Virus record (IMG/VR): IMGVR_UViG_3300032893_000012
Span: 1 to 64,000 of that record
DNA from: a virus
Length of the DNA: 64,000 nt
Strand: one strand, 5' to 3'
Part shown: positions 31,004 to 60,488 of the stretch, in pieces
Position numbering within the stretch: position 1 is the stretch's first letter
Layout of the letters: every line of letters starts with the position of its first letter
Program-made: the position numbers and the translations under genes
The notes under the pieces: generated by a model
Database searches by the model: none
Told to the model about the DNA's origin: nothing
Seen by the model: only the letters and a program-made list of their open reading frames with translations

Positions 31004-31168
31004 TCAGAACCCCCATTCCCCTGCAACCCCCCGCGACGGAGGAAGCGGTGACGGAGGTTGATCCGCCGCCGTCTTCCAACCAGAGCGAACCCCGGCTCCG
31101 ATAGCGATGACCGCCGACGCAATGAGCGCGAACGGAAACCACTCAGGTAGTTCCGCTTTTTTGGCCAT
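31004..31168 (-). CDS. small membrane protein
   Basis: MAKKAELPEWFPFALIASAVIAIGAG; TAATG overlap. Confidence 0.45.
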   Translation of the reverse strand: MAKKAELPEWFPFALIASAVIAIGAGVRSGWKTAADQPPSPLPPSRGVAGEWGF

Positions 31169-33003
31169 TAGCCGGCACAGGGACGTGCGGTGATCGCCCC
31201 GTTCTCGAAGGCGAAGAGATAGACGACGCCATCCGGTCCTTGGACCATCGACGGCTGCCCTTTGGAGACGCTGAGAGCCACTCGCGCAGCCGTAGCCATC
31301 GCCGGCGGTATGTCGACGGGCGCGCCCCACACACGGCAATTGGCGGGCAGCGATGGTGTGTTTGGGGTGAACGGGACCCCCCACCACGGGGCTCGCCCGC
31401 TCGACCAACGGATCCCTGATGCTGGATGCCGTTCACCGCCAGGCGAGGCATGGAATGCGTGCGCCGGGTGCGGAAGGTGCGGGGGCGCACTGAGCGCGCC
31501 AGGGTAGGGCGGGTAGGCAGGTGTGGCGCCAAGTCCGTGAACACCGGAAGTGAGTGAAGACGGATATGGCGGGTACGGAATATCTCCTGAGGCAGTCGAG
31601 GTAATTGCGGCGGCTGGGACAGTTGCCGCCGGTGCCGATGGTACAGATGCTCTCGACGGTTCGGGCGGCTTCGGTGTTGGCTTTGGCGGCTCTGGTGCAT
31701 GAGGGGCCGGTTTTGGCGGTTCCGGAGCATGAGGTGCTGCCTTTGGCGGCTCCGGCGCATGCGGCGCGACTCTGGGCGGCTCAGGCGCGTGCGGCGCCGC
31801 CTTCGGAGGAACGACCGCGGCAGCAATCGCTGCCTTTGCTGCCATTGGCGTGCTCGCCACTGCCTGCACGACGTTGCCGAGCCATGGGAGATGTTTCTCC
31901 TGCGTCTTCAGGGCAGCATCAAAACCCTGACGTACGGCGGCAGGTAGCTGACTACGTACGGCCGTGAGCGCTTTCTCGTTCATCCCCTCGTGACCGAGTA
32001 AGCCGGCCGCCATCTGAAAACCCCTCGTTGCATCGCCAGGCGCGACGGATTTGATAGCTTCTGCGAGCCCCGGTGTCGACGAAAGCGCTTGCTGTCCGGC
32101 GGCAAGTACCGCCTGAAGCCCTTCAGGCGCGATACCGACGAGTCCTTTCGCAAGTGCGTTTTGGATCTTCTCGCCGGTTGCGACAGAAACGCCGATGTCG
32201 AACGCTTTTCTGGCGGGACCATCCGGAACAAGATTTCGAGCGCTCTCGATTGCGGCCTTGGCGACGTTCTCGCCAGAGGCGACTTTCATCGCAGCGTCGA
32301 AACCGGCAGCGGCGATAGGACCACCCGGGATCGCTCCGCGGATTGCAGCCTTCGCCGCTTCGTCGATACTTTTACCCTCGGCGAGCGCTGCGCCTGCTCC
32401 GATAGCTGCCGCGACTCCGGTACCGATACCCGGGACGAGAGACACGACGGTTTGTGCGTACGGAGCAACGTCTTTGACGATTTTGACCTGATCCTTGAGC
32501 GCTCCAACGAGTGCGTGATCGAGTCGTTCGCCAGTTGCGATGTTTTTTGCGAGATTGAGAGGTGCGACCGCTGCCTCACCAACGATATGCGCCAAATCTC
32601 CTACGACTGGGATGCTCGAGATGGCGTGACCAACATCTGAGATCGCTTTGCCGGGATCGAATCTTGTGGTGATTGTCCAGCTTCGCTTGGCGGCATCGCG
32701 TAGGTAGCGGTCGTGATCCTCTTTCCTCTTCGGAGTCGACTGCCAAAACTTGTCATCCGGGCGCGTGTTGACATCGTTGGGTTTGTCGTAACCGTTCATC
32801 TCCGCAAGTCGTGCGGTACGCGCCGCTATTGCAGCCGTGTCATTGGCTTCGGTCTCTTTTCGAAGCGCAATTCTGTTGGCGTCCACATCCTGAATCACAG
32901 CCATCGCAAAACCGGTCCAGCGCTGGCGGTCGGCGTTGGTCGCATTTTTGATGTGTATCTGAAGCCATCCGGGCCATTCGCTTCCAAGTCCTATTTCGTC
33001 CAT
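31168..33003 (-). CDS. Ala/Gly-rich helical protein with Pro-rich repeats (putative virion protein)
   Basis: 611 aa; glycine-zipper-like GIGTGVAAAIGAG; four to five APHAPEPPK-like repeats at about 31655-31805. Confidence 0.7.
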   Translation of the reverse strand: MDEIGLGSEWPGWLQIHIKNATNADRQRWTGFAMAVIQDVDANRIALRKETEANDTAAIAARTARLAEMNGYDKPNDVNTRPDDKFWQSTPKRKEDHDRYLRDAAKRSWTITTRFDPGKAISDVGHAISSIPVVGDLAHIVGEAAVAPLNLAKNIATGERLDHALVGALKDQVKIVKDVAPYAQTVVSLVPGIGTGVAAAIGAGAALAEGKSIDEAAKAAIRGAIPGGPIAAAGFDAAMKVASGENVAKAAIESARNLVPDGPARKAFDIGVSVATGEKIQNALAKGLVGIAPEGLQAVLAAGQQALSSTPGLAEAIKSVAPGDATRGFQMAAGLLGHEGMNEKALTAVRSQLPAAVRQGFDAALKTQEKHLPWLGNVVQAVASTPMAAKAAIAAAVVPPKAAPHAPEPPRVAPHAPEPPKAAPHAPEPPKPAPHAPEPPKPTPKPPEPSRASVPSAPAATVPAAAITSTASGDIPYPPYPSSLTSGVHGLGATPAYPPYPGALSAPPHLPHPAHAFHASPGGERHPASGIRWSSGRAPWWGVPFTPNTPSLPANCRVWGAPVDIPPAMATAARVALSVSKGQPSMVQGPDGVVYLFAFENGAITARPCAG

Positions 33004-33007
33004 GGCG

Positions 33008-33403
33008 TCAAGATCGTATCACCATCTTGAGAAAATGGGGATTGGTCAAACCGTTGCGAATTCGCTGGATTCGCCGCGCGGCTCGAGGTCCAGGAACACC
33101 GAGTTCTACGAGTGCCAGTCCCGCGATGACCCCGGAACGGTTACGCCCCTGCCAACAAGTTACGAGTACGCGTTGTCCGGAGCGAATTTGCCGAGCGACT
33201 TCGTACGCGGTGTCTCTGATCAGTGCTTTCTCTTCTCTGGTCGGCGGAGGGCCGTCGTCGAGCGGTACATGAATGACTTCGTATCCGGGTATCTCCGGTT
33301 GGTATTCGATTGCCGCGAGCACGATAGTATCGAATGGGATTTCGACGCTAATCGGCGGAGCACTTCCTTGCGCTAACCTTTGCGACAGATACGAATACCC
33401 CAT
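33008..33403 (-). CDS. dual-specificity protein phosphatase family protein
   Basis: HVPLDDG acid loop and VLVTCWQGRNRSG (CX5R); start MGYSYL at 33403. Confidence 0.88.
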   Translation of the reverse strand: MGYSYLSQRLAQGSAPPISVEIPFDTIVLAAIEYQPEIPGYEVIHVPLDDGPPPTREEKALIRDTAYEVARQIRSGQRVLVTCWQGRNRSGVIAGLALVELGVPGPRAARRIQRIRNGLTNPHFLKMVIRS

Positions 33404-33789
33404 CACGTTGCGGCGAGTAGGGTCACTCCGTGATGCAACCCCCATGGCTTCACCGGCCCTCCAGGCTCATGGTAGTGCTGCTCGATCCATGTAGCGTACA
33501 TTTTCCCATCCGAAGCTGTAAACGGTGCGAGTGTTCCGTACGGCATCGACGTAAATCCAGGGGTACTTCGAAGAGCGTTTGCCTGTGCACGTAGATCTGA
33601 TGTGACCTCAGAACTGGTTACTCGACGCCACCCGGGTGGTACGGCAAGCGAGACTTTTTTAGTTTCTCCGTAAGTAGTGGGTGGTACTGCTGTTGATACA
33701 ATCGGTGTTGCGCGTGATTTTCGCGCAAGAAGAAACACAGCTGTTGCTGCTGCGGCTGCTCCTCCAAATACGATCCAGTTCGATTTCAA
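33403..33789 (-). CDS. N-terminally membrane-anchored protein
   Basis: hydrophobic N-terminus then basic residues; overlaps both neighbours. Confidence 0.65.
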   Translation of the reverse strand: MKSNWIVFGGAAAAATAVFLLARKSRATPIVSTAVPPTTYGETKKVSLAVPPGWRRVTSSEVTSDLRAQANALRSTPGFTSMPYGTLAPFTASDGKMYATWIEQHYHEPGGPVKPWGLHHGVTLLAAT

Positions 33790-34346
33790 GCGAACCTTCG
33801 CACTGGTAGTGTTCGGTAGGCTACGTATCCAGCGGTCGCTGCGAGACCAAGAGCAGCGACCACCACAAGCGCATCAGATCCTTTAGTGCGCTGTGGCGCG
33901 ATCACTTGTGTTTCAGGCTGCACGTCTTGAAGTCTAGCAATCAACTTATTCAAAGATGGGTACGTGCTACCGAGATACGAATTCAAAGCGTTCTGCCACG
34001 CGGTTACGTCGCCTGAGTCTGCCGCCACAAGGCCGCCGTATCGATCCAGAGCCTTCAGCATCGAATACGCACCGGATCTCGCGTCTGAGAATGCGCGGAA
34101 TTTCAGTGGCGAGGAAACTTTTGGATTATAAAACCACGATACATCGTCGCGCGACGTGGTCACATTTCCGACGTTCCAGTTGTACATCGATTGCCACTCA
34201 GCTGTTTCGTTTGCGCTGAGCGCTAGTGGCCAAAGCCACGAGCTTTTTGCCGGAAGATCGCGAGATCTCAGCGTACGATACGCCTCGACAATAGCGCCGG
34301 CGACGTGCGGCGCATTACTCGGCGTTAGAGCGGCGGCGACCTGCAT
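33786..34346 (-). CDS. putative lysozyme-fold (GH73-like) hydrolase with C-terminal TM anchor
   Basis: SANETAEWQSMYNWNVGNV...FRAFSD; C-terminal hydrophobic helix plus basic tail. Confidence 0.55.
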   Translation of the reverse strand: MQVAAALTPSNAPHVAGAIVEAYRTLRSRDLPAKSSWLWPLALSANETAEWQSMYNWNVGNVTTSRDDVSWFYNPKVSSPLKFRAFSDARSGAYSMLKALDRYGGLVAADSGDVTAWQNALNSYLGSTYPSLNKLIARLQDVQPETQVIAPQRTKGSDALVVVAALGLAATAGYVAYRTLPVRRFA

Positions 34347-34468
34347 TAGCGCGAAGGGGTACGACGCGGTTCCGGATCTGGACCTGGCGCGACGGAAGGC
34401 GAACTCGTATCGAGTTTCGTGCTGCGTACGACTTCAAGCTTCGGTGGTTCGTATTTTTCTTTCGTCAT
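34346..34468 (-). CDS. 40-aa small protein absent from the ORF track
   Basis: MTKEKYEPPKLEVVRSTKLDTSSPSVAPGPDPEPRRTPSR*; ATGA overlap upstream and TAATG overlap downstream. Confidence 0.55.
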   Translation of the reverse strand: MTKEKYEPPKLEVVRSTKLDTSSPSVAPGPDPEPRRTPSR

Positions 34469-35904
34469 GGCAACGCGACGACCTCCGAGAGGTTACTGGT
34501 GTTCGCGAACGGAAGCGTCGCCCACGTCTTGTCGGTTCCGGCGATGCGAGCATCGACGGTGGAGCCGGTAAGGGAGGGCAAAATATCGTACTGAAATGCG
34601 GCCATCGAGTAGGTTCGAATCCCGAAGGCGTACCCGCTCGTTGGCCCCCAGAGACGCGCGTTGTTGTGCTGGTAGCTTGCACATCCTGGGTCTACCTCCC
34701 ACGCGACGCCGCCTGAGGCGGTCGCTCCTGCTTGAACCTGCGCGCCGTTCGCTTCGATGAAGCCAGCATCAGTCTGGAGCACGCGGCCGCCGTCGAGCGT
34801 GATCGCGTTCTGCATTTGCAGGGTCGCCGAACCAAAGACGTTCAGCGTCGACTGAAAGACGCAGTCGGCCATTCCCAGGGTCGAATTCAATCCAACTGTC
34901 ATGCTCGACTTGAAGATGGATTGATCAACGTGGCAGGTCGCGTTCACGAAGCCAGCGAAGCAATTCGAGTCGAAGGAACATCCGACGAACTGAACGCCGG
35001 AAACGGTCGACGGATCCGACTGAGGACGCCAATACTGGAACGAGGCGAAACCGCTCGAGGGATCGCTCGTGAAGTTCATGTCCTTCCATAGGAAGCGTCC
35101 AGCGCCTTTGACGCGGAGATCCATGCGCCCCTGAAACGTCGTCTGGAGAGTATCGACGACGTAGGAATCACCCGGGGACGGGTTTACTCCGGTCGCGATC
35201 ACATTGCCCGGCGGCGCGTTCGACGTGAAGCGCGACCACCCGGTCACCTGGGCGACGGTACCGGTCGTACCCCCCTGAGTGTAAGTGATGGCCCCGCTCG
35301 TGGCGCCGCTCGTTGTCCGGAGACGTTGCCCACGTGAGAACGAGCCCGCACCGTCTGTTGCCGTTCCACGGGTGTTCGAGCCTGAAGCAGTTGGCGTGAG
35401 CGCCGAGAAGGTCGACGCGACGCTTGAACTGACGGTCCCCTGGATCGTGACGAGGATGCCGGTTCCGATGTGCAAGTCGAGCGGTCCGAGATCGGTCAGT
35501 GTTCCTGCGGCGACAGTGACAACGACGTTCGAGGAGACGTCGTTCCAGCGCATCCGATTTCCCCATTCGACGAGTGTCTTGAGCGGCGCACCGAGCGTCA
35601 TGCCGCTGTTCCGGTCGTCGCCCGAGACAGGGTCGATGAACCATGTCGTGACGTACTGGGCGAGCTGGTTTCGAATGTATTGCCGGATAGCTAAGGCCCC
35701 TGCGGGCGCCGCCGGTGCGATGACGTTCAGCCCGTCCGCGGCGGGAGTTGGGGAAGGTGCGACGAGGTAGAGATACTGGTCGTTCACTACGCCGACGGTT
35801 ACCACCGTGAGATCGTTCATCGTCGTCAGATCCGCTGCAGCGAGTGCCTGCGGCGACGCGAACGCGGTCTGGGTGATCTGGCTCTGACGAACCTTCTCGG
35901 TCAT
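34465..35904 (-). CDS. putative spike/receptor-binding beta-helix protein
   Basis: WFIDPVSGDDRNSG..APLKT motif; paralogous to the C-terminal domain of the collagen-like protein. Confidence 0.7.
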   Translation of the reverse strand: MTEKVRQSQITQTAFASPQALAAADLTTMNDLTVVTVGVVNDQYLYLVAPSPTPAADGLNVIAPAAPAGALAIRQYIRNQLAQYVTTWFIDPVSGDDRNSGMTLGAPLKTLVEWGNRMRWNDVSSNVVVTVAAGTLTDLGPLDLHIGTGILVTIQGTVSSSVASTFSALTPTASGSNTRGTATDGAGSFSRGQRLRTTSGATSGAITYTQGGTTGTVAQVTGWSRFTSNAPPGNVIATGVNPSPGDSYVVDTLQTTFQGRMDLRVKGAGRFLWKDMNFTSDPSSGFASFQYWRPQSDPSTVSGVQFVGCSFDSNCFAGFVNATCHVDQSIFKSSMTVGLNSTLGMADCVFQSTLNVFGSATLQMQNAITLDGGRVLQTDAGFIEANGAQVQAGATASGGVAWEVDPGCASYQHNNARLWGPTSGYAFGIRTYSMAAFQYDILPSLTGSTVDARIAGTDKTWATLPFANTSNLSEVVALP

Positions 35905-35914
35905 CGCGATGTTC

Positions 35915-36406
35915 CTACGGTGACTGGTTTACAGTGAGCTGCTGAATGAAAAGTTTCGTGCCGCTCGCGAGAATGAGTCCGCTTGCGCCGATCATGTTCG
36001 CCTGTGCGAAGATGACCGTCGGAAACCCGGCTGGCGTCCCGGAGTAAGGGATCTCATTTCCGAGTCGATTCGCGTTCAGGGTCATGGTGAGGACGGAGGT
36101 GCCCGAGTGAAGATCCGTCACCGAGACGTCAGAGGTCGTCGTCGATGAGCTCGCCAGAGTGACCTGGGTCTCGCTCGGCTGTACGTTCAGAGCAAACTGA
36201 AGCTGGACGAAGTAGAATCCGTACTGGCACGCGAATGCCGGGGAGGCCCCGAAGCTCCCCCCTGGGAAAGCGACGACGCCGAACGAGTCGGAGATAAACT
36301 CGAGCGAGCTGAAGGGGATGATCAACGGAACGCCGCTCGAGAAGGCGGTGTTCGTCGCTAGACCGAGTCTTGCGAAGGGGCGACTGCCGTAGGTTCGATT
36401 GCTCAC
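35915..36406 (-). CDS. beta-rich putative virion protein
   Basis: 163 aa, operon packing. Confidence 0.6.
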   Translation of the reverse strand: MSNRTYGSRPFARLGLATNTAFSSGVPLIIPFSSLEFISDSFGVVAFPGGSFGASPAFACQYGFYFVQLQFALNVQPSETQVTLASSSTTTSDVSVTDLHSGTSVLTMTLNANRLGNEIPYSGTPAGFPTVIFAQANMIGASGLILASGTKLFIQQLTVNQSP

Positions 36407-41854: not shown

Positions 41855-42166
41855 ATCCGGAAACCTTTTTTATGTTTGAAGTCGTTCAAGGTCGCACAGG
41901 AGGCAAATGGATCAGCTCGGTGGTCTAGACAGCGGTGTGACCGATCTCAACGAAATCGCGAAGTCGCGAGGCCTGCTCATGTTCGAAATTCCGCTATATC
42001 GCGCATCCCAATGAGGGTTCCCACTGCCATTTGCAACCACGTTGGTGTTGTTGACGGCTTCTCGATAAATGGCTTCATCGATCATCTGTCGAGGAGAACC
42101 ATTCTCCGAATGTCCACTCTTGTTCTTGAGGTTCTTGAGTTTGCGTCTCATTGGGAGTGTTTCTTT

Positions 42167-42439
42167 CTATTCGATGACTTCACCGAGTAACGCGACAGTT
42201 ACCCCGCCAGCTAAATGCGACATGAGGCTGACGGCGCACCCGACGAACATCGCGTCCAGGATGCGACCACTGTCAGCTGATACGATGTTGCACGCTCCTC
42301 CAATCACACCGATCCAGAAGCCGACACACTGGTTGCATTTCAACACTGATAGTCGTCGTCTAACTGAGCGAAAGATCGTGCTCTGCGTTACGATGAGAGT
42401 TGCCCCGATCAGCGCCAATACACGGATCAGGGTGAACAT
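42167..42439 (-). CDS. small membrane protein, DUF1360-like
   Basis: LKCNQCVGFWIG between hydrophobic helices. Confidence 0.6.
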   Translation of the reverse strand: MFTLIRVLALIGATLIVTQSTIFRSVRRRLSVLKCNQCVGFWIGVIGGACNIVSADSGRILDAMFVGCAVSLMSHLAGGVTVALLGEVIE

Positions 42440-42442
42440 CGT

Positions 42443-42631
42443 TCACTTCTTCGCTTTGGACGCGATCTCAGCTAGACGCGCTACGACTTCGGGGCGAATC
42501 TTGATCGTTCCTACCGAACCGTTCTCTTTGTCGTCGTCGGAGATTTCCATCGAACCATCGTCCATTGTCCGCACCGTGGGACACCTCTTTTGTCCGCAGC
42601 ACAGTGTTTCTTGATGGATCGTTTTCGGCAT
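42443..42631 (-). CDS. small hypothetical protein
   Basis: LCCGQKRCPTV...ISDDD; AAGGAG RBS. Confidence 0.6.
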   Translation of the reverse strand: MPKTIHQETLCCGQKRCPTVRTMDDGSMEISDDDKENGSVGTIKIRPEVVARLAEIASKAKK

Positions 42632-42641
42632 AGCGGACTCC

Positions 42642-43190: not shown

Positions 43191-43193
43191 TTT

Positions 43194-43430
43194 TCAGGTT
43201 CCTCGGAGTGCGTTACGAGCCGCAATGAACTCTTCGGTCGTCATTGGCACGAGTTTTCGAGCTACCAGGAAGTCCAGATACCTAGAGCTGATCCGGTTCG
43301 ACAGCAGACGCATCACTGTCGCGTTCCAATCAGAATACACCAGCGCCTCCCCATTCCATTCCGGAGAGGTCAAGTACACATCACAGGCTCGCGCCGCGAC
43401 GAGTTCTGCTCTGGTGATTATGACTTGCAT
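43194..43430 (-). CDS. hypothetical protein
   Basis: operon packing. Confidence 0.55.
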   Translation of the reverse strand: MQVIITRAELVAARACDVYLTSPEWNGEALVYSDWNATVMRLLSNRISSRYLDFLVARKLVPMTTEEFIAARNALRGT

Positions 43431-48832: not shown

Positions 48833-48947
48833 GATTTTTCGAGCTCCTGTTTTGCTTCGCCGTTTCTCTGGGCCGACGCGAAGCGTCTCTGACACCTCAA
48901 CCCCGGGGCTCGAGGCCTACCGGGGCGAGGTGTTTCACTGAACGAGT

Positions 48948-50897: not shown

Positions 50898-52529
50898 TTA
50901 TCGGATGTTCGGGTAGAGCAGATCGAGCAAAGTTGTGCGTTTACGGTGCACGCCGCCGAGCGAGCCTTCGCTCATACCAACGAAGTCTCCCGCACCGATC
51001 TCTTTTGCGGTCTTCCCTGGTTCGACCCACCACTCTTTTGCGTTGGGAGAGACGTGTCCGACGGGATAGTTCGTCGTTCCGTCCATTCTCACCCAATCTC
51101 CGAGGTCATCTTCGAACGCCATGAATACGTGTGTCGGTACTTCATACGGCGCACGGTGACTGCTTCCGATGATCATGGCGTCGATACCGATCGACATCAC
51201 CGCTGCGGCGAGCGTGATAGCCGCTTCGTCACAGTTGCTTACGGTTACGTCGTGCTCTGGGAGGTAGACGTAGTGATCGTCGGTAGAAATATCCCAGCAA
51301 GGGACTTTTCTGACGGATCGATCTATCGATCGAACCGACAGTGTGAGTGATCCTTTCTCCCGTTGACCGACACGCCACAGAGGATGCTTTCCAGCTCCGC
51401 CATGTTGCTCTGGAGTGAGCATTTTAACGCTTGTCATCTTGCCGAACATACGATGCAGTACGCGCACCTGAAGCATGAGTTGTCTGCTAGTCGTCGAATA
51501 CGTACGCGTGGCGGCGCCGGTGTTCTTCGTGCTATCGGCCATCAATCCGCGCAAGGCCGCAGCGGCGCTAGCCTCTTCGAGATTAATCGTTTCCAGATGT
51601 TTAAATCTCGCTCGAGATCCTAGTCCGGCTATCCGTGAAGCCCATTCTCTATCTTTGATCTCGATGTATTTCGCGTGCCAGAGAGTCTCGATCCCGAGGC
51701 GTTCGCAGATGGCCTTGACCTCATGCTTCTGTTCTTCTTTGCGTTTGCCGTCGCGACCGCCAATGCGAAATTTCAGATGCGGCAGATTTTTGTTTTTGCT
51801 CGCTTCCACCCATCCGTCTGCGAGCGTCAGAGCTTCGACGTACATGCGATCCGGATCAACTCGCATCGATCCGAAAACGATACGTTCTGGTTGGAGAAGT
51901 GCGTCTCCCTCCGACAGATCAGTCACGCGGACACGCTCAAATGCGTTGCAATCTTTTTGGTAGCAGGCTCCGTGTGCTGACCGACCGTGCGGACACCTGC
52001 CGACATATACCTTGTGATCGCCGGTCAAATGCATCGTCGAGCCGTTGCTCATCTCGATAGCATCGACCGAAAGCGCTCCTTTTGCCCATTTTTGCGTAAC
52101 TTCGCTCCACTTGTCCTTGCCCCAGATACGATCGCCGATATTGATCTTTTCGATCGGAATGAATTCAAAATCGTCGCGTAGGAGCAGCGTTCCTTCCGGG
52201 AAGCAATCGCCGCCGATGATGCAAAGCCCTCCCTCGTCGAGACAGAGAAGCTGGTTCGGTGTCGCCATAAATTCTCCCATGACTGGGTCAGCGACGTACG
52301 GAACCTTCTTTCTGAAGGCATCGAGAATACACTGCGCCTTTTGACGTTTCCCGCCACGTGACACGCCTTTTTTGTCGAGCTGTTGGAGCACCCAGGCGCG
52401 CAATCTCGGACTCATTCGTGCGGACCATGCGCGGTCGGCCACCTCTTGCAAGGATTTCTTCGCTCCCTTAGCGCCAGCAGGGTGCGGTCCAGCATCTGTC
52501 TTCACTCCATTTATAGGCTTGTCGATCAT
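50898..52529 (-). CDS. transglutaminase-like cysteine protease interrupted by an intein
   Basis: spliced product reads YVADP...GGD|CDEAA...THVF...WVRMDGT (Cys-His-Asp triad). Confidence 0.85.
   Translation of the reverse strand: MIDKPINGVKTDAGPHPAGAKGAKKSLQEVADRAWSARMSPRLRAWVLQQLDKKGVSRGGKRQKAQCILDAFRKKVPYVADPVMGEFMATPNQLLCLDEGGLCIIGGDCFPEGTLLLRDDFEFIPIEKINIGDRIWGKDKWSEVTQKWAKGALSVDAIEMSNGSTMHLTGDHKVYVGRCPHGRSAHGACYQKDCNAFERVRVTDLSEGDALLQPERIVFGSMRVDPDRMYVEALTLADGWVEASKNKNLPHLKFRIGGRDGKRKEEQKHEVKAICERLGIETLWHAKYIEIKDREWASRIAGLGSRARFKHLETINLEEASAAAALRGLMADSTKNTGAATRTYSTTSRQLMLQVRVLHRMFGKMTSVKMLTPEQHGGAGKHPLWRVGQREKGSLTLSVRSIDRSVRKVPCWDISTDDHYVYLPEHDVTVSNCDEAAITLAAAVMSIGIDAMIIGSSHRAPYEVPTHVFMAFEDDLGDWVRMDGTTNYPVGHVSPNAKEWWVEPGKTAKEIGAGDFVGMSEGSLGGVHRKRTTLLDLLYPNIR
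51234..52205 (-). mobile_element. intein (324 aa) with degenerate LAGLIDADG-like endonuclease region
   Basis: CFPEGTLL block A, LTGDHKV block B, CWDIST..HYV block F, ends VTVSN/C; LTLADGW and LRGLMADS motifs. Confidence 0.9.
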
Positions 52530-53578
52530 CGGCGATTACGCTTTCGGTTTGTCAGATAGATCGCACTTCCTACGACTCCTGCCCCGAGGAGTCCGATTCC
52601 CGCCATCGCTCCGACGCTGAGTCCAGATGATGCAGTCGCTACAGGTGCAGCAGGCGTGATAGGCGCAACAGGTGATACGGTTACATGCGGTGCGCACGCA
52701 GTCGGAGCGCTCCCTAGCGCCTGCGCTAGAGCGCTCGCTGTCGCTTGCTCGTAGTTGCTCGTGTTGATCGGAACTGGGTTAGCGCCGGACGAATTCCAAG
52801 CCGTTTTGAAGGCGTGAACCGCTGCGTTGACGCTGCTTCCGGGGTGCGTCACCGACGTGCAGTAACTCGGATCGGCGACAATGGCGGCTACTGCGGCTCG
52901 TGCGGCATCGGCTACTGAGGTAGGCGGCGCCGGGACATCGCCGTAAAACGCTTGCAGCGCTAGCCTAGCCGATGACATCGCATCCGAGAGATCGTGTAAG
53001 ACGTCCGAACGAACCTGAAAGGAATCGTTGCTATTTCCGGCAACGATTGCAGCACTAAGCGCCGGAAGTCGAGCGCGCGCTTTACTGGTGCTCTTACGTA
53101 CGTCTTGCGCGTACGGGATTGCGTACACCGCAGGGGACCCACTGCCGACGATTTCCGAGACCGATGCATCCACAACATTGGCAGCATTTTCAGCGGCGTC
53201 GCCGAATCCTTGATCTCCCATCGCAGCAAGCGCACTGACCTTCGCATTCGCCGCATCGAGCGCGGCGTAGTCGGCGAGCACTCCAGCGGCCGCATCACCG
53301 AGAGACGATGGCGTGACGCCATCCATATGAGGAAGCGCAGCGAAGTACGCCCGGGGACGCGTATCCAGTTCGCCAGAGAACCACTTCTCCGGTAAGTTGA
53401 GAACCTCGCCCTCGCGTAGATCTTTGAACGTAACGAAACCGTTCGGAAGACGCTTTGCCGCCTTGTGAGGGTTGGCGCGCACGATGTCAATTGCGCATTT
53501 TGGGCAGCCAGCCATGTCCGGCCGACTGGCGATACTAGCCGGGCTATCTCCAGCCTGAACGACGTAAGTCCGCGTCAC
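52526..53578 (-). CDS. LysM-like protein with C-terminal TM anchor (paralog of 43440-44798)
   Basis: YVVQAGDSPASIA..ANPHK; shared ADP.YC.SV..G..VN.AVH.FK.AWN..VPINT..YE domain. Confidence 0.8.
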   Translation of the reverse strand: MTRTYVVQAGDSPASIASRPDMAGCPKCAIDIVRANPHKAAKRLPNGFVTFKDLREGEVLNLPEKWFSGELDTRPRAYFAALPHMDGVTPSSLGDAAAGVLADYAALDAANAKVSALAAMGDQGFGDAAENAANVVDASVSEIVGSGSPAVYAIPYAQDVRKSTSKARARLPALSAAIVAGNSNDSFQVRSDVLHDLSDAMSSARLALQAFYGDVPAPPTSVADAARAAVAAIVADPSYCTSVTHPGSSVNAAVHAFKTAWNSSGANPVPINTSNYEQATASALAQALGSAPTACAPHVTVSPVAPITPAAPVATASSGLSVGAMAGIGLLGAGVVGSAIYLTNRKRNRR

Positions 53579-53823: not shown

Positions 53824-54095
53824 GCAGAGAACCCCGCATCAGGCTGCGGCTCAGGCGGCTGTGGAGCGTTTTCCTGCGGAGGCGTGTCAGAAGTAATCGG
53901 AGGAGCGCTAGGCGGCGTCGAACCCACAACAGCAGCAGCGAATATTTCTCCAGCTATCCGAAAAAGATTCGGATCGATTCCACGCAAGTGTCTCAAAGTG
54001 TCGTGGATAGCGTTCAGTGTCCAACGCCGCCCTACGTCTTCGGCATACTTGAGCACTTCATCGTCAGTGAGTTCAACTTGAATAGAAAAACGCAT
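53820..54095 (-). CDS. hypothetical protein
   Basis: TAATG overlap, start MRFSIQ. Confidence 0.55.
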   Translation of the reverse strand: MRFSIQVELTDDEVLKYAEDVGRRWTLNAIHDTLRHLRGIDPNLFRIAGEIFAAAVVGSTPPSAPPITSDTPPQENAPQPPEPQPDAGFSA

Positions 54096-55777
54096 TAGGA
54101 GTTTCCTTGTCCAGAAATATTCGGTGGTGCCCACGTCTGTCGCGATGCAGGTGAAGGCGAAATAGGCGGCGGTAGATTCGCTGGCGGAGGAGGAAGCGGC
54201 GCTGCGGTCGGGGGCAATTGATGCGGATCCACCGCTGCCGCAACGAATCCTGGCGGTGGTTGGTAGTCTGGCGGCACCTCTAAGTAGCCTGGCGGCAACA
54301 CGCGCTTCTGTTCTGGAGCTCGATTTTGACTCTTCTGGATCGCCTCGCGTTGTTCACCGAGCCACTTGAGAAAGCTTCCCAGGTTCGCCGCTGCAGATTC
54401 GCCCCAGCGCATAGTGCCATCCGCTTTGCTGTACGCGATCTTGCCGTTGCCAGTATCGAGAATTTTGATCGGACTGTCGTCTTCTTCGGTCGCTACCGGT
54501 TCCGGCGCTTCTCGCTCTTCGTCCGTCCCTAGAATACTTCCAAATTCTTTCGCGGTAGCTACAGCCGTGCGTACCAATGTCAGCGATTCTTTGAGATGCT
54601 CCGCCGCAGTTTGCTGGCGCGGTGGCTGCTCACTGCTGTATCGCGGTGGCGGTGGCGGCGCCTGACCTGGATCTCCTTGCGGGTAATACTGACGCTGAGG
54701 CCCCATGCGCGCGCCCGATCCGGGCCCCATGTTCGGAACGAACAGCGACGCTAGTCGGTCGATCGGTACGAAACCGAGCGGCGTCCACACCGTGCCCTGA
54801 GGAGCAGGTATCGGGGGCGCACCCATCATTCCTGGAACGAAGCTTGGTACCGCTGGCGGCGTCGGCGGCGCTCCCTGCGTTACCTGTTGCGGCTGCATGG
54901 ACTGCGCGAGAGTGAGCATCCGCTGGAACCATTCCATCATCGTCGGCATGTCCGCCCCCGGTGGGGGCATTGGCGGCGGCGGCGGAGGAGGCGGCGGCGC
55001 TTGCGGCGGAGGCTGCATGCTCTGAACTATTTGCTGCATCCGCTGAAACCACTCGAACATCGTACCCATGTCGGGTCCAGCCGGCGCCTGAACAACGACT
55101 GGTACTTGCGGCGGCTGCGGCGACGGAGCTGTCGCAGCTGCGGGCGGATACGCTGGTTGCGGCTGCGGGGGCGAGTAACCAGGTTGAGCTGGATAACCGG
55201 GCAGCGGATACTGTGGTGGATAGCCGGGCGGATATGGATATGACATCGGCTGTCCTTGCTGCGGTCGAGTATCCGGCAATGTGATCTTACCGTTACCGCG
55301 AAACTGCTTGCTATTGGTGTCGAGGATTTTGACCTCGTAGTCGGCCTCACCGTGCTGGCCGTGAATGATCTTGAGCGCGTCGTAGAGTTCCGCCGCGGAT
55401 CTTGGACGACTGATGATTACTTGCTGGACCGGAGTTCCAGTAAGCCGTCTAACGTGTATGTCGAGTGTGTTTGCTGGCCAATACCGAAGAAGCGTCTCGT
55501 ACGTGGTGAGCAGATCACCGGTGTTGAACGAGACCTTGCTCTGGTTCGAGCGCTTCTTGTCGACGATAGCGTCGAGGCGACGGTTTTCACGTACGCTTTC
55601 GGCGTCGACGGCGCCTATCGCGCGAACGGCATCTTCGGATGCTACGAGTTCGCCAGTGTCCTCGTCACGTTCAGCCCCAACCTCGGCCAGGACGTCGGCC
55701 TCGTCCTCCTGCGCAGGTGTATTCGAGGCTGTATGCGCAGGAGGCGATTCACTGCGAATTCGTCTACGTGTTCCCAT
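54095..55777 (-). CDS. Pro/Gln-rich large hypothetical protein
   Basis: 560 aa; duplicated DM.TM.EWFQRM..QSMQ motif. Confidence 0.75.
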   Translation of the reverse strand: MGTRRRIRSESPPAHTASNTPAQEDEADVLAEVGAERDEDTGELVASEDAVRAIGAVDAESVRENRRLDAIVDKKRSNQSKVSFNTGDLLTTYETLLRYWPANTLDIHVRRLTGTPVQQVIISRPRSAAELYDALKIIHGQHGEADYEVKILDTNSKQFRGNGKITLPDTRPQQGQPMSYPYPPGYPPQYPLPGYPAQPGYSPPQPQPAYPPAAATAPSPQPPQVPVVVQAPAGPDMGTMFEWFQRMQQIVQSMQPPPQAPPPPPPPPPMPPPGADMPTMMEWFQRMLTLAQSMQPQQVTQGAPPTPPAVPSFVPGMMGAPPIPAPQGTVWTPLGFVPIDRLASLFVPNMGPGSGARMGPQRQYYPQGDPGQAPPPPPRYSSEQPPRQQTAAEHLKESLTLVRTAVATAKEFGSILGTDEEREAPEPVATEEDDSPIKILDTGNGKIAYSKADGTMRWGESAAANLGSFLKWLGEQREAIQKSQNRAPEQKRVLPPGYLEVPPDYQPPPGFVAAAVDPHQLPPTAAPLPPPPANLPPPISPSPASRQTWAPPNISGQGNS

Positions 55778-55780
55778 CGT

Positions 55781-56170
55781 TCAAACTTGCGCCTGTCCGC
55801 CCGTCGTCTGCTGCGGTTCTTCCTCTTCTGGTTCGGTTCCGTCAGATTCGGCTGCCTCGAGTTCGTCAGCGAAGACCTCGAGAGGCATCGCCTCTTGTAC
55901 GAATCGAATTCGACCCATTGGAACGAAGTCGCGCATACCTACTGCGTCACCACCTTCAACCGCATCCAAATACGAGAAAATCTCGATTCCTCCGCCCGCA
56001 TCTGTTCCAATGAACATACGTACGACTTTCGCGCCTGGCACGTGCGGATGCTCGCTACCCACCGCCCATCGTGTGGTCTCAGGCTGCCCCGATACGGGAG
56101 CTAGATTGTCACTGATCACGAGTGTGACCATTGGATAGGTCGGAGGCGGAAGCTTAAAAACTGTCGTCAC
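55781..56170 (-). CDS. hypothetical protein
   Basis: GGAGG RBS, GTGA overlap. Confidence 0.6.
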   Translation of the reverse strand: MTTVFKLPPPTYPMVTLVISDNLAPVSGQPETTRWAVGSEHPHVPGAKVVRMFIGTDAGGGIEIFSYLDAVEGGDAVGMRDFVPMGRIRFVQEAMPLEVFADELEAAESDGTEPEEEEPQQTTGGQAQV

Positions 56171-56769
56171 AGCGCGTTATCCTCCAAGAATGAGTAGTAG
56201 CTCCGCCTACGAGCGTCGCCGGCGACGATAATGTGGTCGAGGAACTTGATGTCAATGGTTTCGAACGCATCAACGAAGGCGTCTGTCGTTTCGATGTCCG
56301 CCTCGCTCGGTTCGGCTTCGATGCCCGACGGGTGTACGTGGAAGATGATCACCGCGTGCGCCCCGTCCGCTACGGCGGCTTGAAGAGTCGGTAGGATGGG
56401 TGCCATCACGCTGGACGGCTCCCCACGTCCGGTCTCAGCAAGACCCTTGAATCGTAAATGCAGATCAAGCGTCACGACTCCGAAAACCTCATTGACCTCG
56501 TCTTCGATGGCCTCACCGATGAGATGGAAGGCCTTTTCCGGTTCGTCGAGCGGTCCGATCTGATCTGAGAGCGCGTTACACGCCGCGAACCTGTCAGCGT
56601 CCTTCTGAATCGTCAAAAACGGACGGCACCGCGCGCCGCGCTTGCCATCGATGATGAGCGGTTCTACTTCGCGCGGTCGTCGCGGGGCCACCCGATCCCG
56701 TACAATACCGCGGATGGCATGTTCCGAGACTCCGTGCATGCGAGTAAGCGGCCTGCACGCGCAAGTCAC
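56167..56769 (-). CDS. RadC-like JAB-domain protein
   Basis: EVFGVVTLD...IIFHVHPSG..PSEADIETT...FLDHIIV. Confidence 0.88.
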   Translation of the reverse strand: MTCACRPLTRMHGVSEHAIRGIVRDRVAPRRPREVEPLIIDGKRGARCRPFLTIQKDADRFAACNALSDQIGPLDEPEKAFHLIGEAIEDEVNEVFGVVTLDLHLRFKGLAETGRGEPSSVMAPILPTLQAAVADGAHAVIIFHVHPSGIEAEPSEADIETTDAFVDAFETIDIKFLDHIIVAGDARRRSYYSFLEDNAL

Positions 56770-57074
56770 GCTACAGCCGCCTGTATTGATGCGCCTTTCA
56801 GATCGACAAATTCATCTAGCGATACGCCGCGCACGCGGCAGATCGCTTCGTCGATCTTGAAAGTGACGCAATGCCTCTTGAAGGTCATGTCGTACACTTT
56901 TTGTGCCACGACGATGTCTCCCGGCTTGTATCCTGCAGCCTCTGCCGCTGGACCAACCTCGTCGAGCAGGAAACAGCGCGTGACACCTTTCGCGTGATCA
57001 AGCACCAGTTCACTGGTCGGTTTCGGCACAAGAGCGCGTCCGATGACCCAATCGTTAACAGGTTCGAGCTTCAC
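56766..57074 (-). CDS. GroES/Cpn10-like co-chaperonin
   Basis: MKLEPVNDWVI...ELVL...EVGP...YKPGDIVV...DEAICRV. Confidence 0.6.
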   Translation of the reverse strand: MKLEPVNDWVIGRALVPKPTSELVLDHAKGVTRCFLLDEVGPAAEAAGYKPGDIVVAQKVYDMTFKRHCVTFKIDEAICRVRGVSLDEFVDLKGASIQAAVA

Positions 57075-57655
57075 GTCTGTTCCTCTTCTTGTTCGATAGT
57101 GAATCGATCGTAGAAAGACTGCGAAGGTGACGGAGGGGTTAGCGCAGCGATGGTACCGTCCGTATTCGGCGGAGGTTCGACCGTTGCGCTTTGAAGGCGA
57201 GCCAGTTCCGCTTTCGTTGTTTCGAGCTCGATCTCGAGAGCCATACGCGAGGTTAATACTTCACTGAAATACTCACGACTTGGGGCGAAGTACGGTTCCT
57301 GTGCCGGCGGACGCGCAGCGAGAGGAGCAAACTGTCGTGCGGCGTTCAATACAACGAGAGCGTTCATGCGCTGTTCGCGGTCAGGGCAACCTCGAGTGAT
57401 CAGAACAGCAGGCTTCCCTGAATCTGAAGTGTCGTAGCGATCGTTTACGCACGGTTCCGTTTCATCGTCTTTGCCGGGACAGCCGTTCACGTGCGCGCAT
57501 CGTTCAAGTATTCCGAAGGCAGCGCGCGCCGCAATCTGCCAGCCGACTTTGTTGCGCCACAGAGCGAGCTTGACGGCGTTCCAGTCGCGTACCGATATCG
57601 GTACCTTCTGATCGACTGGAGTTTCGAGCCCCTGCCTTCTTTTTTCGTTCATCAT
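57071..57655 (-). CDS. hypothetical protein
   Basis: operon packing, 194 aa. Confidence 0.6.
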   Translation of the reverse strand: MMNEKRRQGLETPVDQKVPISVRDWNAVKLALWRNKVGWQIAARAAFGILERCAHVNGCPGKDDETEPCVNDRYDTSDSGKPAVLITRGCPDREQRMNALVVLNAARQFAPLAARPPAQEPYFAPSREYFSEVLTSRMALEIELETTKAELARLQSATVEPPPNTDGTIAALTPPSPSQSFYDRFTIEQEEEQT

Positions 57656-57927
57656 CAGATCGTCGCTCCGTCTGGTTCAACGATGCGGATGTACCCGTCG
57701 CTCGGAGGGCGCTTAGCCGCTTGAACAAGGATCGAGCGCATCCACGCGCTCATGCTTAGTCCGCGTTTCTTCGCTCTTTCTTCGATCAAACGGTACTGAG
57801 CCGGCGTGAGCTTGACGCCCGCGGTCTTGGCCTTGAGCGGTAGACGTTCGGTTGGACGTTCGTTTGCCGTTCGTTTGCCTTTCGTTGACGCTTTCGTATA
57901 CTGCTCTCCGTCCGCTAGACGTGTCAA
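57655..57927 (-). CDS. ribbon-helix-helix (CopG/MobC-like) DNA-binding protein
   Basis: AGVKLTPAQYRLIEERAKKRGLSMSAWMRSILVQAA; start uncertain. Confidence 0.65.
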   Translation of the reverse strand: MTRLADGEQYTKASTKGKRTANERPTERLPLKAKTAGVKLTPAQYRLIEERAKKRGLSMSAWMRSILVQAAKRPPSDGYIRIVEPDGATI

Positions 57928-57954
57928 GACGCTAGACGTAGACTCAGCGTACGG

Positions 57955-58368
57955 ATGGCACAGTTCGGCATCGGACCTGAACTCGCGGCACAGTGCCCAC
58001 AAGCGTCGACGCCAGACGGTTGGCGTCCGTGGTCACCTGACGCAGATGGGCCAATTCCGGACGCTCTAGCTGCGCGCGCGGCTGCTCTTGTGGGCGATCA
58101 GGCGACCGCGCTCGGAGCGACAGAAAGCTATCCTCTTCCAGGGGTTACGACACTTATTCGAATCGAACCACGTGTCTGGGGACGCGATGCACAGGGCGCA
58201 CTCGTCGAGGGGTGCTTTCGAAGTGGCGGTGTCTATCTACCGTACGGAACCCCGGCAGGCGCAGCGACACCGAGCGACGACAAGCTCGCAAAAACAGTTG
58301 GAGTACTCACCGCGGTGAGCCTGGTGGTCGGAACTGCGGCAACGATTGCTACCTGGGGACGTCGATGA
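57955..58368 (+). CDS. C-terminally anchored membrane protein
   Basis: TM helix plus WGRR; begins a rightward overlapping gene run. Confidence 0.6.
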   Translation: MAQFGIGPELAAQCPQASTPDGWRPWSPDADGPIPDALAARAAALVGDQATALGATESYPLPGVTTLIRIEPRVWGRDAQGALVEGCFRSGGVYLPYGTPAGAATPSDDKLAKTVGVLTAVSLVVGTAATIATWGRR

Positions 58369-58547
58369 CCATCGAACGTAATGGTCGTACTGTTGTTGGA
58401 TTCGGAGATGAGGCTGTTTCGCTTCCGATCAAAGCGCCGCCGTCGACGTGGACCGTTGCGCTCGCGACGAGCGTCGTTGGCGCTGCGACAGGATGGGTCA
58501 TCGAGGAAATAGCGAGCAACATCCGAGGTCGAAAGAAGCGCCAATAA
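58365..58547 (+). CDS. small membrane protein
   Basis: ATGA/TAATG overlaps; TM plus RGRKKRQ. Confidence 0.55.
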   Translation: MTIERNGRTVVGFGDEAVSLPIKAPPSTWTVALATSVVGAATGWVIEEIASNIRGRKKRQ

Positions 58548-59170
58548 TGAACGAGCAGATTCGAATCAATGGCGCATCTGTCGTCGGGCTCGGGGACGCG
58601 AAAGTTGTGGCGCCTCCAAGTTCCCGTGTAGCGCAAACACTCGCGGATGCTTTTCTCGGTGCGGCAGCGGGAGCAGGGCTCGGTGGGCTTATCGGAGGGA
58701 AGACTGGCGCACTAATCGGCGTCGCGGTTGGGGGTATCGGTGTGGGAGCAGTTACGTATGCGGTGCTGGGAGAGGATACGTGGAATACATCACCTCTACC
58801 TCCAACAACGACATCTGTCTGGCGCCAGCTCACTCAACCGACTGACAGCGTGAAGGCGGGAGAGGAGATGGCCGTAGCGATCTTAGGACCCAACAGGACA
58901 CCTCTGTCGCCGGATCTGATCGCGCAGCTAGATGCTGCACTTGCATTGATTCCTAGCTACAACGTGACGGCGCTCATAGCGAAGTATCCGCCAGGAACAT
59001 CGCCGCCTGCAAACGATTGGCCCTCAGACTATGTGATACCGCCCGGAATGAGAGATGATTTCGGTCCCGGCGCGTATCGCGTGCTACTTCGTGCGCTTAT
59101 CGATTCCCCTCCGACGTTCTGGCACTCCGTACCATCAAATGTCGGGACGTTCGGAATATGGGCACGATGA
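58547..59170 (+). CDS. glycine-zipper membrane protein
   Basis: GAAAGAGLGGLIGG..GALIGVAVGGIG. Confidence 0.6.
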   Translation: MNEQIRINGASVVGLGDAKVVAPPSSRVAQTLADAFLGAAAGAGLGGLIGGKTGALIGVAVGGIGVGAVTYAVLGEDTWNTSPLPPTTTSVWRQLTQPTDSVKAGEEMAVAILGPNRTPLSPDLIAQLDAALALIPSYNVTALIAKYPPGTSPPANDWPSDYVIPPGMRDDFGPGAYRVLLRALIDSPPTFWHSVPSNVGTFGIWAR

Positions 59171-59721
59171 AGTACGGCGGTTACTCTGAAGCGGAGGCAA
59201 CGATGATCTTTCTCGGCGAAACGGCGTTCCTAGGCGCGTGTCCCGTCATTCGGCCGGAAGGGATCTATCTCGATGGGCAGCGTGTGATTAGATTTGGGCT
59301 CGGTGCCGTAGAACGCAAAAATCCGCTACCTGCAGGAAGATACTGGGTCGATGTTTTCGCAAAAGATTCAGACGCTTTTGGCGCATGGCTCAACTCAAAT
59401 AAAGCCACCGTTCAGGTACGCACAACGGAACATTTTGACTCGGATCCGGTACGTGATTGGTACCTGTTTGAAGTAAGCGTTCCGACTCCGTGGCAGGGAC
59501 CTGGTTTTCCAACTATCGCTGGGCCGCACGTAACGAGTTCGAGCGATACCGCACAACGACCCGATCCAGTACCTTCAGTCGCGACACAGGTTGAAAAAGA
59601 ACTCGCGGATCTGAAAAGCGCAACCAGAACCGCGACATGGATCGGTGCTGCGGTTCTCGTCGTGGTTGGTGGAGCTCTACTCGTCTACTACGTACCTCGC
59701 CCTGCAACGCGATCTAGATGA
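59167..59721 (+). CDS. C-terminally anchored membrane protein
   Basis: ATGA overlap; TM plus basic tail. Confidence 0.6.
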   Translation: MKYGGYSEAEATMIFLGETAFLGACPVIRPEGIYLDGQRVIRFGLGAVERKNPLPAGRYWVDVFAKDSDAFGAWLNSNKATVQVRTTEHFDSDPVRDWYLFEVSVPTPWQGPGFPTIAGPHVTSSSDTAQRPDPVPSVATQVEKELADLKSATRTATWIGAAVLVVVGGALLVYYVPRPATRSR

Positions 59722-59855
59722 CGCTTCGAGCTCGCATTCAAGAATTGGAAGAACGAGTCGAAGCGATAGCCGCAGAACTCGCTGACGTACGTCAAAATCT
59801 ACTCGAAGCCCTAGCGCGAGCAATCCACGGGCCGTCCCAACCGCCCCCGATACTC

Positions 59856-60179
59856 TCACTTCAGTCGCAAGACCCAAGCGAGAACGACGATGCCGACCAC
59901 AATCACGAAAAGAATAAACGCTGACGGGCGCGCGTTTTTCAATAGGACGCGGAGCCCAGTCGGACGAAGCGAAAACTGCGTTTCGCTCGGCAACTCATCT
60001 CGATAGCGATCGATCGCACTCTGGCTCTGCCGATCCTCTGCCTCGCCCTGCAGTGTCGCAAGTTCGTTTCCGAGTCGTCGTACACGCCCCCAGATCACGA
60101 TAACCTCGGCTTTTAGCTCATCGACTTCCCGCTCCAGGTCGAGTCGGCGCTGGCGTTCATCAGTCGGCATACCCACCAA
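59856..60179 (-). CDS. coiled-coil plus TM protein
   Basis: C-terminal FILFVIVVGIVVLAWV; overlaps the alternative ORF 59718-59924(+). Confidence 0.45.
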   Translation of the reverse strand: MVGMPTDERQRRLDLEREVDELKAEVIVIWGRVRRLGNELATLQGEAEDRQSQSAIDRYRDELPSETQFSLRPTGLRVLLKNARPSAFILFVIVVGIVVLAWVLRLK

Positions 60180-60236
60180 GGTAGCGCGAACTCACGCATT
60201 TCGCTTGACGGTACCGCAAGCGGTACTCTCGGGTTG

Positions 60237-60488
60237 TCAGCGCGGTAACTGTTGCGTCGGTACTGGTGCGGGTTCGTCACTTCCGATTGTCCCACCGATG
60301 AATGCTCCGACCACTGCGCCGGTCGCGCCGCCAACCACCATCGCGTCTTCGATATCTGCGCCACGTTGAGCCGCAGTGTATCTGACGCGCGGACGATACC
60401 GCGCTGCGTAATGCCCAGCGGCAGCGCCGGCAGCACCCCCGACTAACGCACCAAGCGCGCTCCAGAGACCAGTCTTGGCGTTGCTCAT
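60237..60488 (-). CDS. glycine-zipper small membrane protein (paralog of 45542-45766)
   Basis: GALVGGAAGAAAG...GAVVGAFIGGTIG..QQLPR. Confidence 0.6.
   Translation of the reverse strand: MSNAKTGLWSALGALVGGAAGAAAGHYAARYRPRVRYTAAQRGADIEDAMVVGGATGAVVGAFIGGTIGSDEPAPVPTQQLPR

Follow-up and report, generated by a model that had tools for sequence, protein, structure and literature searches.

A conserved gene module without tailed-phage hallmarks points to a widespread clade of large tailless bacterial viruses

We analysed a 64,000-nucleotide stretch of viral DNA (the window), the first 64 kb of the 109,321-bp IMG/VR record IMGVR_UViG_3300032893_000012. With a probability that we put at about 0.6, it holds the morphogenetic module of a widespread and so far undescribed clade of bacterial viruses that are large, lack a tail and have shell proteins of the jelly-roll type. 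From the gene content we infer that the particle would have an internal membrane and an icosahedral shape, and that its genome would be enclosed without a motor by an arginine-rich protein. An original prediction, made before any database search, had described 31–60.5 kb of the window as the virion module of a non-tailed, membrane-containing virus. The lack of tailed-phage hallmarks was borne out, but no FtsK/HerA ATPase is conserved in the clade, and so one defining feature of the classic PRD1-type lineage, its packaging ATPase, is absent.

The whole record (G000) is classed as linear, is rated 100% complete by CheckV and has a G+C content of 59%; related genomes are labelled G001 to G005. 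Five relatives that CheckV rates complete measure 96–125 kb, and two of these, of 111,461 and 124,600 bp, carry 127-bp direct terminal repeats, which indicates that their genomes are closed circles or circularly permuted. At 109 kb, with closed relatives of 111 and 125 kb, the genome is, as had been predicted, larger, and by far, than that of any tectivirus or corticovirus. Gene calling with a codon-usage model trained on the long open reading frames (ORFs) of the contig gave 135 genes in the record, and no tRNA gene was found across the 109-kb genome. When the whole proteome was compared with three relatives by tblastn, the only conserved and collinear stretch was 41.9–60.9 kb of the window. 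The ~29-kb structural module first proposed therefore stands for this block, whereas 31–41.9 kb holds variable fibre and spike genes. Replication modules and most other genes have been exchanged between relatives that share the virion block; G004 has the same replication set as G000, and the sets of G001 and G002 differ.

No family of terminase, portal, HK97 capsid, sheath, tube, tape measure or baseplate proteins was found in Pfam and PHROGs scans of ~135 ORFs in all. For the 110 of these that were scanned in addition to the large ORFs, in batches of which the best 25 families each were listed, there was no hallmark family among the matches listed. Six-frame profile searches covered G000 and up to five relatives, and control genomes gave the expected matches. 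Nothing scored over the cut-off for Terminase_6N, searched in the whole 109 kb of G000 only, for TerL_ATPase in G000–G004, or for Phage_capsid and FtsK_SpoIIIE in G000 and its relatives, and the Phage_portal search of five genomes was empty at the level of hidden Markov models. The Terminase_6N search does detect terminases on unrelated IMG/VR contigs. The sole "tail" matches in PHROGs came from the collagen repeats of a protein of 1814 amino acids (aa). At the level of these profiles, genes for a terminase, a portal, an HK97 capsid or a tail are lacking throughout the clade. The original observation that terminase, portal, HK97, sheath, tube and tape-measure genes could not be recognized was thus upheld with working controls. 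It had come with the caveat that the window might omit part of the genome; the remaining 45 kb were checked and held no packaging genes, and neither an FtsK/HerA ATPase nor terminase, portal or tail genes were found anywhere in G000.

The best-conserved genes of the clade are a trio encoding proteins of 445, 201 and 295 aa (Table 1). Their identity in three relatives, determined by tblastn, was 67–88%, 68–75% and 50–73%, respectively, and the two smaller genes come after the 445-aa gene in all of the checkable loci (33/33). Three consecutive beta-rich proteins had been noted in the original prediction, with the middle gene extending to 47300; the proteins are there, but orthologues place the start of the middle gene at a TTG at 47258. 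In 24 relatives the 201-aa protein is 37–83% identical and begins with MQPRD or MQPKD. The 445-aa gene is preceded by an AGGAG ribosome-binding site 12 nucleotides before its ATG and followed by a GC-rich hairpin downstream of the stop codon. GC-rich hairpins lie on both sides of it (47400-47450 and 48900-48945, minus strand). A scan for promoter and terminator consensus sequences gave counts no higher than in shuffled sequence.

Of the candidates scored, 426 were homologues of the 445-aa protein (E ≤ 1e-3); identity was 71–90% for the best 120, and none carried a name or a Pfam domain. They sit on contigs of up to 139 kb. Clustered at 50% identity, the family falls into 167 groups, the most distant of them ~25% identical. 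The protein was found in 31 IMG/VR loci and on three contigs binned in metagenome-assembled genomes (MAGs) of Binatia and Polyangiaceae, and a tblastn search of 50,697 phage records gave zero matches. No published description of the clade was found in full text, the coverage of subscription journals being limited. The 201-aa protein had no Pfam, PHROG or PDB match; in the ESM Atlas it matched its own viral clusters (0.96), and the nearest named family was P2_N/P2_C of PM2, at a weak 0.78. No paralogy was detected by hhalign among the three proteins, a hydropathy scan gave no transmembrane (TM) segment in any of them, and their N-termini, judged by eye only, are not signal-peptide-like. No significant match to a solved structure came from single-sequence or profile searches, whether with the protease family or with the proteins of 445, 295, 201 and 491 aa. 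Complex prediction for the 445-aa and 201-aa proteins returned a score of 0.00, which is no verdict and evidence neither way.

The AlphaFold2 model of the 445-aa protein (83-sequence alignment) is almost all beta, with a predicted local distance difference test (pLDDT) of 87.4 and a predicted template modelling score (pTM) of 0.85. That of the 295-aa protein (40 sequences; pLDDT 76, pTM 0.77) is a single jelly roll, and the ESM Atlas model of the same protein (pLDDT 0.28) had no useful neighbour. Neither model had a Foldseek match with E < 1e-3 in PDB or BFVD. The top rows, none significant, were nearly all viral jelly-roll capsid proteins, papillomavirus L1 and capsid proteins of small DNA viruses being the best for the 445-aa model. 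In an exhaustive structural search the best Z for this model was 6.0; PBCV-1, SPV1, HCIV-1, PRD1, HHIV-2, faustovirus and FLiP were among the rows, the HHIV-2 and HCIV-1 chains at Z 5.2–5.4, and viral capsid proteins were interspersed with carbohydrate-binding and discoidin domains. After rescoring of the Foldseek candidates, PRD1 P3 and PR772 came top (Z 6.2–6.4, 152–166 residues aligned, root-mean-square deviation [rmsd] 6–7 Å), followed by D13 of vaccinia, SPV1, STIV and faustovirus. The 295-aa model matched chain 6h82_b best (Z 8.0, 122/135 residues aligned, 15% identity, rmsd 6.5 Å), ~2 Z above the next row in both searches, with viral single jelly rolls and generic ones mixed below it. 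This chain is probably the HHIV-2 penton protein VP9, because the HHIV-2 scheme has 27 capsid chains (A–Z plus a) and the first 40 residues of the penton are disordered (PMC6414509). Chain 6oj0_Z of SPV1 was among the top rows of both models (Z 5.4–5.6).

No HK97-fold chain was among the top structural rows of either model, both being nearly all beta; an HK97 fold of the capsid candidate had been named at the outset as the result that would speak against a non-tailed virus. That the 445-aa and 295-aa proteins belong to the jelly-roll class, and not to HK97, is well supported by the models. Guidance for the structural search holds that Z < 8 may mean only a common arrangement, and the scores speak for a fold, not for homology to any capsid family. 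Jelly-roll folds, as originally proposed for the capsid proteins, were recovered in the models of two proteins, with PRD1 P3 and the putative VP9 as nearest structures, but their likeness to capsid proteins lies at scores that generic jelly rolls almost reach.

The alternative that survives best, although we consider it unlikely, is a classic PRD1-type virus, in which the 445-aa protein would be a divergent double jelly roll and the motor a HerA-like, a replaced or a host-supplied ATPase. The top rank of PRD1 P3 and PR772 fits such a virus, as does the order of strands and helices, which by our reading of the model would allow two eight-stranded sets with one helix apiece. However, the scores of these matches are low and their rmsd is high, and the alignments to single-domain jelly rolls cover approximately residues 55–425, which suggests a single sandwich that is formed by the two chain ends and carries a large insert, not a pair of barrels in tandem.

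A motor for such a virus could be sought in the ATPases of the HerA/FtsK superfamily (the superfamily of PRD1-type packaging ATPases) that are encoded by both closed relatives, G002 (326 aa) and G004 (590 aa), and are 37% identical to each other. Against this, the HerA-like ATPase is absent from G001, G005 and G000, in the last case also at the syntenic site, and is partial in G003. The family occurs on >150 other IMG/VR contigs, and among five of these that were sampled, two carried Terminase_6N and none the 445-aa protein. PDB matches of the two ATPases are HerA proteins, mostly annotated just as HerA or ATP-binding protein, and several of them belong to defence systems. As a clade-wide motor the HerA-like ATPase was rejected, since its distribution is patchy and it occurs on terminase-bearing contigs. 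We regard it as accessory because of this patchiness and because it is found on contigs without the 445-aa protein, some of them with a terminase; anti-defence, DNA processing or an optional aid in packaging are possible roles. The canonical Walker-A proteins of G000 are replication enzymes only, the only P-loop protein common to four genomes is a RecD-like helicase, and no P-loop protein was found in or near the conserved module. These Walker-A results and the FtsK_SpoIIIE scan of G000 agree with the earlier observation that a packaging ATPase could not be seen. FLiP and SPV1 are jelly-roll, membrane-containing viruses without packaging ATPases (PMC8812541), and in SPV1 a nucleoprotein core is enclosed under a lipid layer (PMC8459092).

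Approximately 11 proteins encoded in 31–60.5 kb show either a glycine zipper or a TM helix that is followed by a basic tail, which is in line with the ten or more noted before, and seven of them lie inside the block of 41.9–60.9 kb. So many small TM proteins in a conserved module may point to a lipid membrane. Directly upstream of the 445-aa gene there is always the gene of the Arg-rich protein, which is 51–63% identical in relatives and has no Pfam family; a 165-aa tract with 44% Arg+Lys is followed by hydrophobic segments, with TM segments at residues 293–311 and 358–376. Its sequence makes it a candidate for a membrane-anchored, DNA-condensing core protein. Two further anchored proteins of the block are of cell-wall type. 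The 452-aa protein matches PG_binding_1 (E 1.6e-14), LysM weakly (E 4.4e-4) and endolysin PHROGs, with a TM segment at residues 411–429. The 350-aa protein, 47–58% identical in relatives, has no Pfam match and an N-terminus that looks LysM-like by eye only.

The same membrane proteins, the membrane anchors of the nucleoprotein-like Arg-rich protein and the lack of a packaging motor could also be accommodated by another morphology (pleomorphic, enveloped, spindle or rod), in which the jelly rolls would be spikes, fusion or matrix proteins. Jelly rolls are common in receptor-binding proteins, and such proteins occur among the structural matches. We nevertheless rank this reading second among the alternatives and hold it to be improbable: hydropathy shows no TM segment in the trio, its N-termini, judged by eye, do not resemble signal peptides, and the best single structural match is a penton protein, if the chain is correctly assigned. 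The strong conservation of the trio is also atypical for receptor-binding proteins, whereas the fibres of the clade (31–41.9 kb) are variable.

A large plasmid or other mobile element, in which the conserved block would encode cell-envelope or surface proteins, would account for the ParB, tyrosine recombinase, NikA-like ribbon-helix-helix (RHH), TnpB/Cas12-like and methylase genes, for the failure to find packaging genes and for the related contigs binned in bacterial MAGs. This is very unlikely in our view. There was no relaxase family among the matches listed, and P-loop scans gave no candidate type IV secretion ATPase. The N-termini of the trio, judged by eye, do not look like those of exported proteins, the nearest structures are of capsid type, and the trio is adjoined by a core-like Arg-rich protein. 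Moreover, the contigs are IMG/VR virus records rated complete by CheckV, and it is typical of viruses that the structural block is conserved while replication modules can be swapped. Finally, a tailed phage so divergent that its HK97 capsid, portal and terminase would escape the profiles is scarcely credible: the genome does encode collagen-like proteins that match "tail fibre" PHROGs, as well as an HNH endonuclease and an endolysin-like domain, but the PHROG matches come from collagen repeats only, the Walker-A proteins of G000 and G001 are replication enzymes only, the terminase, portal and capsid families were not found in six genomes while controls and unrelated contigs were positive, and the most conserved protein is nearly all beta. 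Each of these alternatives is individually less likely than a tailless virus with jelly-roll-type shell proteins.

For such a tailless virus, the following course of assembly and entry may be envisaged. The 445-aa protein, perhaps together with the 201-aa protein, would form the shell, and the 295-aa single jelly roll would close the vertices. The shell would be laid on a lipid vesicle that bears the tail-anchored and glycine-zipper proteins, and the genome, condensed by the membrane-anchored Arg-rich protein, would be enclosed during assembly and not pumped in by a motor, for which SPV1 and FLiP would be precedents. A transglutaminase-like enzyme could mature or cross-link virion proteins, the anchored proteins with LysM or peptidoglycan-binding domains might act on the cell wall at entry or exit, and collagen-like fibres would bind the host.

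Several points weigh against this interpretation. Both closed relatives encode a HerA/FtsK-superfamily ATPase, as does a third in part, and the packaging ATPase could be variable or replaced. Every Z for the 445-aa model is below 8, with carbohydrate-binding modules, GOLD and TNF-like jelly rolls within ~1 Z, and the Z 8.0 match of the 295-aa model comes with an rmsd of 6.5 Å. As models were made of these two proteins only, a very divergent HK97 protein or portal among the other ORFs is possible. The ends of the 109,321-bp record carry no terminal repeat, and the clade is described here from sequence and models. A more far-reaching claim, that the clade is a new high-rank lineage with 96–125 kb genomes, a membrane and a jelly-roll shell, protamine-like condensation and no packaging nucleoside triphosphatase, is tentative, and we would give it distinctly less than even odds.

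Among known systems, the Helvetiavirae (HHIV-2, HCIV-1 and SH1, and P23-77 of Thermus) also have adjacent genes for several small-to-medium beta-barrel capsid proteins, with a similar size pattern of a small, a large and a penton protein, and the best match of the 295-aa model is the presumed VP9 of HHIV-2 (Z 8.0). In that group, two major capsid proteins with vertical single jelly rolls are combined with a penton that is itself a single jelly roll. Their genomes are ~17–31 kb, and those of the present clade, at 96–125 kb, are 3–6 times larger. A sphaerolipovirus-type genome is ~30 kb (PMC12643093). In the HHIV-2 type the shell rests on a protein-rich internal membrane and the pentons dock on membrane proteins (PMC6414509); many TM proteins are encoded in the module here. 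Unlike in the Helvetiavirae, where the packaging ATPase gene adjoins the capsid genes, no such gene is conserved here; the clade also differs in its Arg-rich putative core protein, its collagen-like fibres and its transglutaminase-like enzyme. Sequence similarity to that group is undetectable, and the host here is bacterial and probably mesophilic.

SPV1, of the Portogloboviridae, has single jelly-roll capsid and penton proteins, an inner lipid layer, a DNA-protein core and circular double-stranded DNA (PMC8459092). It shares with the present clade the combination of jelly-roll proteins and no packaging ATPase, and its chain 6oj0_Z is the one that ranked high for both models. Portogloboviruses also carry mini-CRISPR arrays (PMC8459092), and a Cas12/TnpB-like gene occurs here. 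SPV1 differs in its hyperthermophilic archaeal host and in a genome of 20 kb. The two also lack sequence similarity, the structural scores between them are low, and the present clade has as its candidate core protein a poly-Arg protein with membrane anchors, not one of the VP1 type. With the Tectiviridae and Corticoviridae (PRD1 and PM2) the clade has in common a bacterial host, the predicted lack of a tail, and membrane and cell-wall-active proteins in the structural module. The structure ranked first for the 445-aa model was P3 of PRD1 (Z 6.4), and the 201-aa protein gives the weak lead to the P2 domains of PM2 mentioned above (0.78). The genomes of PRD1 and PM2 are 10–15 kb. In contrast to PRD1, whose hallmark is an FtsK/HerA packaging ATPase, the clade conserves none; the double jelly roll is established in PRD1 and PM2, whereas the 445-aa protein is of jelly-roll type at Z 6.2–6.4, and a Prim-Pol with a D5-like helicase takes the place of a protein-primed polymerase.

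To our knowledge, the tailless jelly-roll viruses of bacteria and archaea are all small, with genomes of ~9–35 kb (see also PMC12643093 and PMC8459092), and the large genomes of prokaryotic viruses known so far are those of tailed phages with a terminase motor. If our interpretation is true, 100–125 kb in a jelly-roll membrane particle, several times more than in any known tailless prokaryotic virus, would break the size rule for tailless viruses and offer a tractable case for the enclosure of large genomes without pumping. The motor-less strategy of SPV1 and FLiP would in that case reach genomes as large as those of jumbo phages, in common bacteria of soil or peat, and the debate over where jelly-roll capsids came from (PMC8812541) would gain a deep branch. 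The clade has hundreds of metagenomic members, a common group that surveys based on marker genes miss; for locating hosts, and samples for isolation, the 445-aa protein can serve as a marker right away.

Table 1. Features of the virion-type block and associated genes (window positions unless another genome or locus is named)
Feature	Position	Strand	Basis
491-aa Thr/Ser/Gly-rich beta-type protein, outside the core block	27119-28594	-	54–61% identity, three relatives
611-, 479- and 163-aa spike/fibre candidates, dual-specificity-phosphatase-like protein, two small TM proteins	31168-36406	-	
Collagen-like fibre protein, 1814 aa	36410-41854	-	collagen-repeat "tail fibre" PHROGs
Five small conserved genes, one coding for a two-TM protein (42167-42439)	41912-43430	-	
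452-aa cell-wall-binding protein, C-terminal TM anchor	43440-44798	-	Pfam/PHROGs
238-aa tail-anchored membrane protein, TM helix then KKGRRGR	44829-45545	-	34–54% identity in relatives
74-aa protein, two glycine-zipper hydrophobic segments	45542-45766	-	hydropathy; sequence conservation weak
Single jelly-roll protein, penton/vertex candidate, 295 aa	45763-46650	-	AlphaFold2 model, match to 6h82_b
Candidate small capsid protein, 201 aa, beta-rich	46653-47258	-	conservation among relatives
Major capsid protein candidate, 445 aa	47495-48832	-	conservation, AlphaFold2 model, structural neighbours
Arg-rich protamine-like protein, 2–3 hydrophobic segments	48948-50678	-	composition, hydropathy
Transglutaminase-like Cys-His-Asp enzyme with intein	50898-52529	-	Transglut_core in orthologues, triad
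Hint+LAGLIDADG intein, 324 aa	51234-52205	-	splice junctions, sub-threshold Pfam matches
350-aa tail-anchored protein, C-terminal TM helix and basic tail	52526-53578	-	hydropathy
560-aa Pro-rich low-complexity conserved protein, scaffold/internal candidate	54095-55777	-	37–42% identity in relatives
RadC-like JAB-domain protein, inside the conserved module	56167-56769	-	PF04002 E 3.5e-23; 61–68% identity in relatives
End of conserved block: 194-, 137- and 132-aa conserved proteins, NikA-like RHH protein, small glycine-zipper/tail-anchored proteins	57071-60899		
Second collagen-like protein, 958 aa, outside the window	71673-74549 of G000	+	Pfam Collagen E 9.9e-93
HerA-like ATPase, 326 aa, G002	L038:14700-15680	-	PDB matches to HerA proteins
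HerA-like ATPase, 590 aa, G004	L048:6970-8742	+	PDB matches to HerA proteins

The cysteine protease named in the original prediction is a transglutaminase-like Cys-His-Asp enzyme. Transglut_core (PF01841) was matched by 17 of the 18 intein-free orthologues (best E 1e-6), in which C109, H143 and D159 are invariant, and the exteins are 70–76% identical in relatives; triad and domain together place it in the transglutaminase-like cysteine protease superfamily, its activity being predicted. The intein, whose matches to Hint (E 0.0058) and LAGLIDADG_3 (E 2e-4) lie below the Pfam cut-offs, has the splice junctions GGD|CFPEG and VSN|CDEAA. It is inserted directly before the catalytic Cys, which is also the +1 nucleophile of the intein. 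It is present in only four of ~25 relatives (L013, L015, L016 and L032), a distribution suggesting that it is mobile and spreads within a virion gene.

The fibres that had been predicted are represented by the 1814-aa collagen-like protein, and a second one lies beyond the window. Both begin with a similar N-terminal peptide (M-x-x-[IV]-T-G, a basic stretch, then E-T-Y), which may be an anchoring peptide for attachment to the particle. The spike and fibre candidates next to the larger protein are only partly conserved in relatives. The 560-aa protein had no family match in Pfam or PHROGs. The 491-aa protein, without Pfam or PDB matches, may be a further virion protein; its gene adjoins a tyrosine recombinase-like gene.

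The other 45 kb of the record encode glycosyltransferases, a GH16 domain, a kinase-like domain, Prim-Pol and HNH proteins. The replication genes comprise helicases of superfamilies 1 and 2, AAA_24, an exonuclease, a PD-(D/E)XK nuclease, ParB and the Prim-Pol with D5-like helicase, and further genes outside the module include the Cas12/TnpB-like gene, a Dam methylase, a tyrosine recombinase and a VWA domain. A 578-aa protein with a Cas12f1-like TNB domain is encoded within 21289-25596 (plus strand), between the replication genes and the Dam methylase, and is adjoined by a CRISPR-like array, as described in the initial reading of the sequence.

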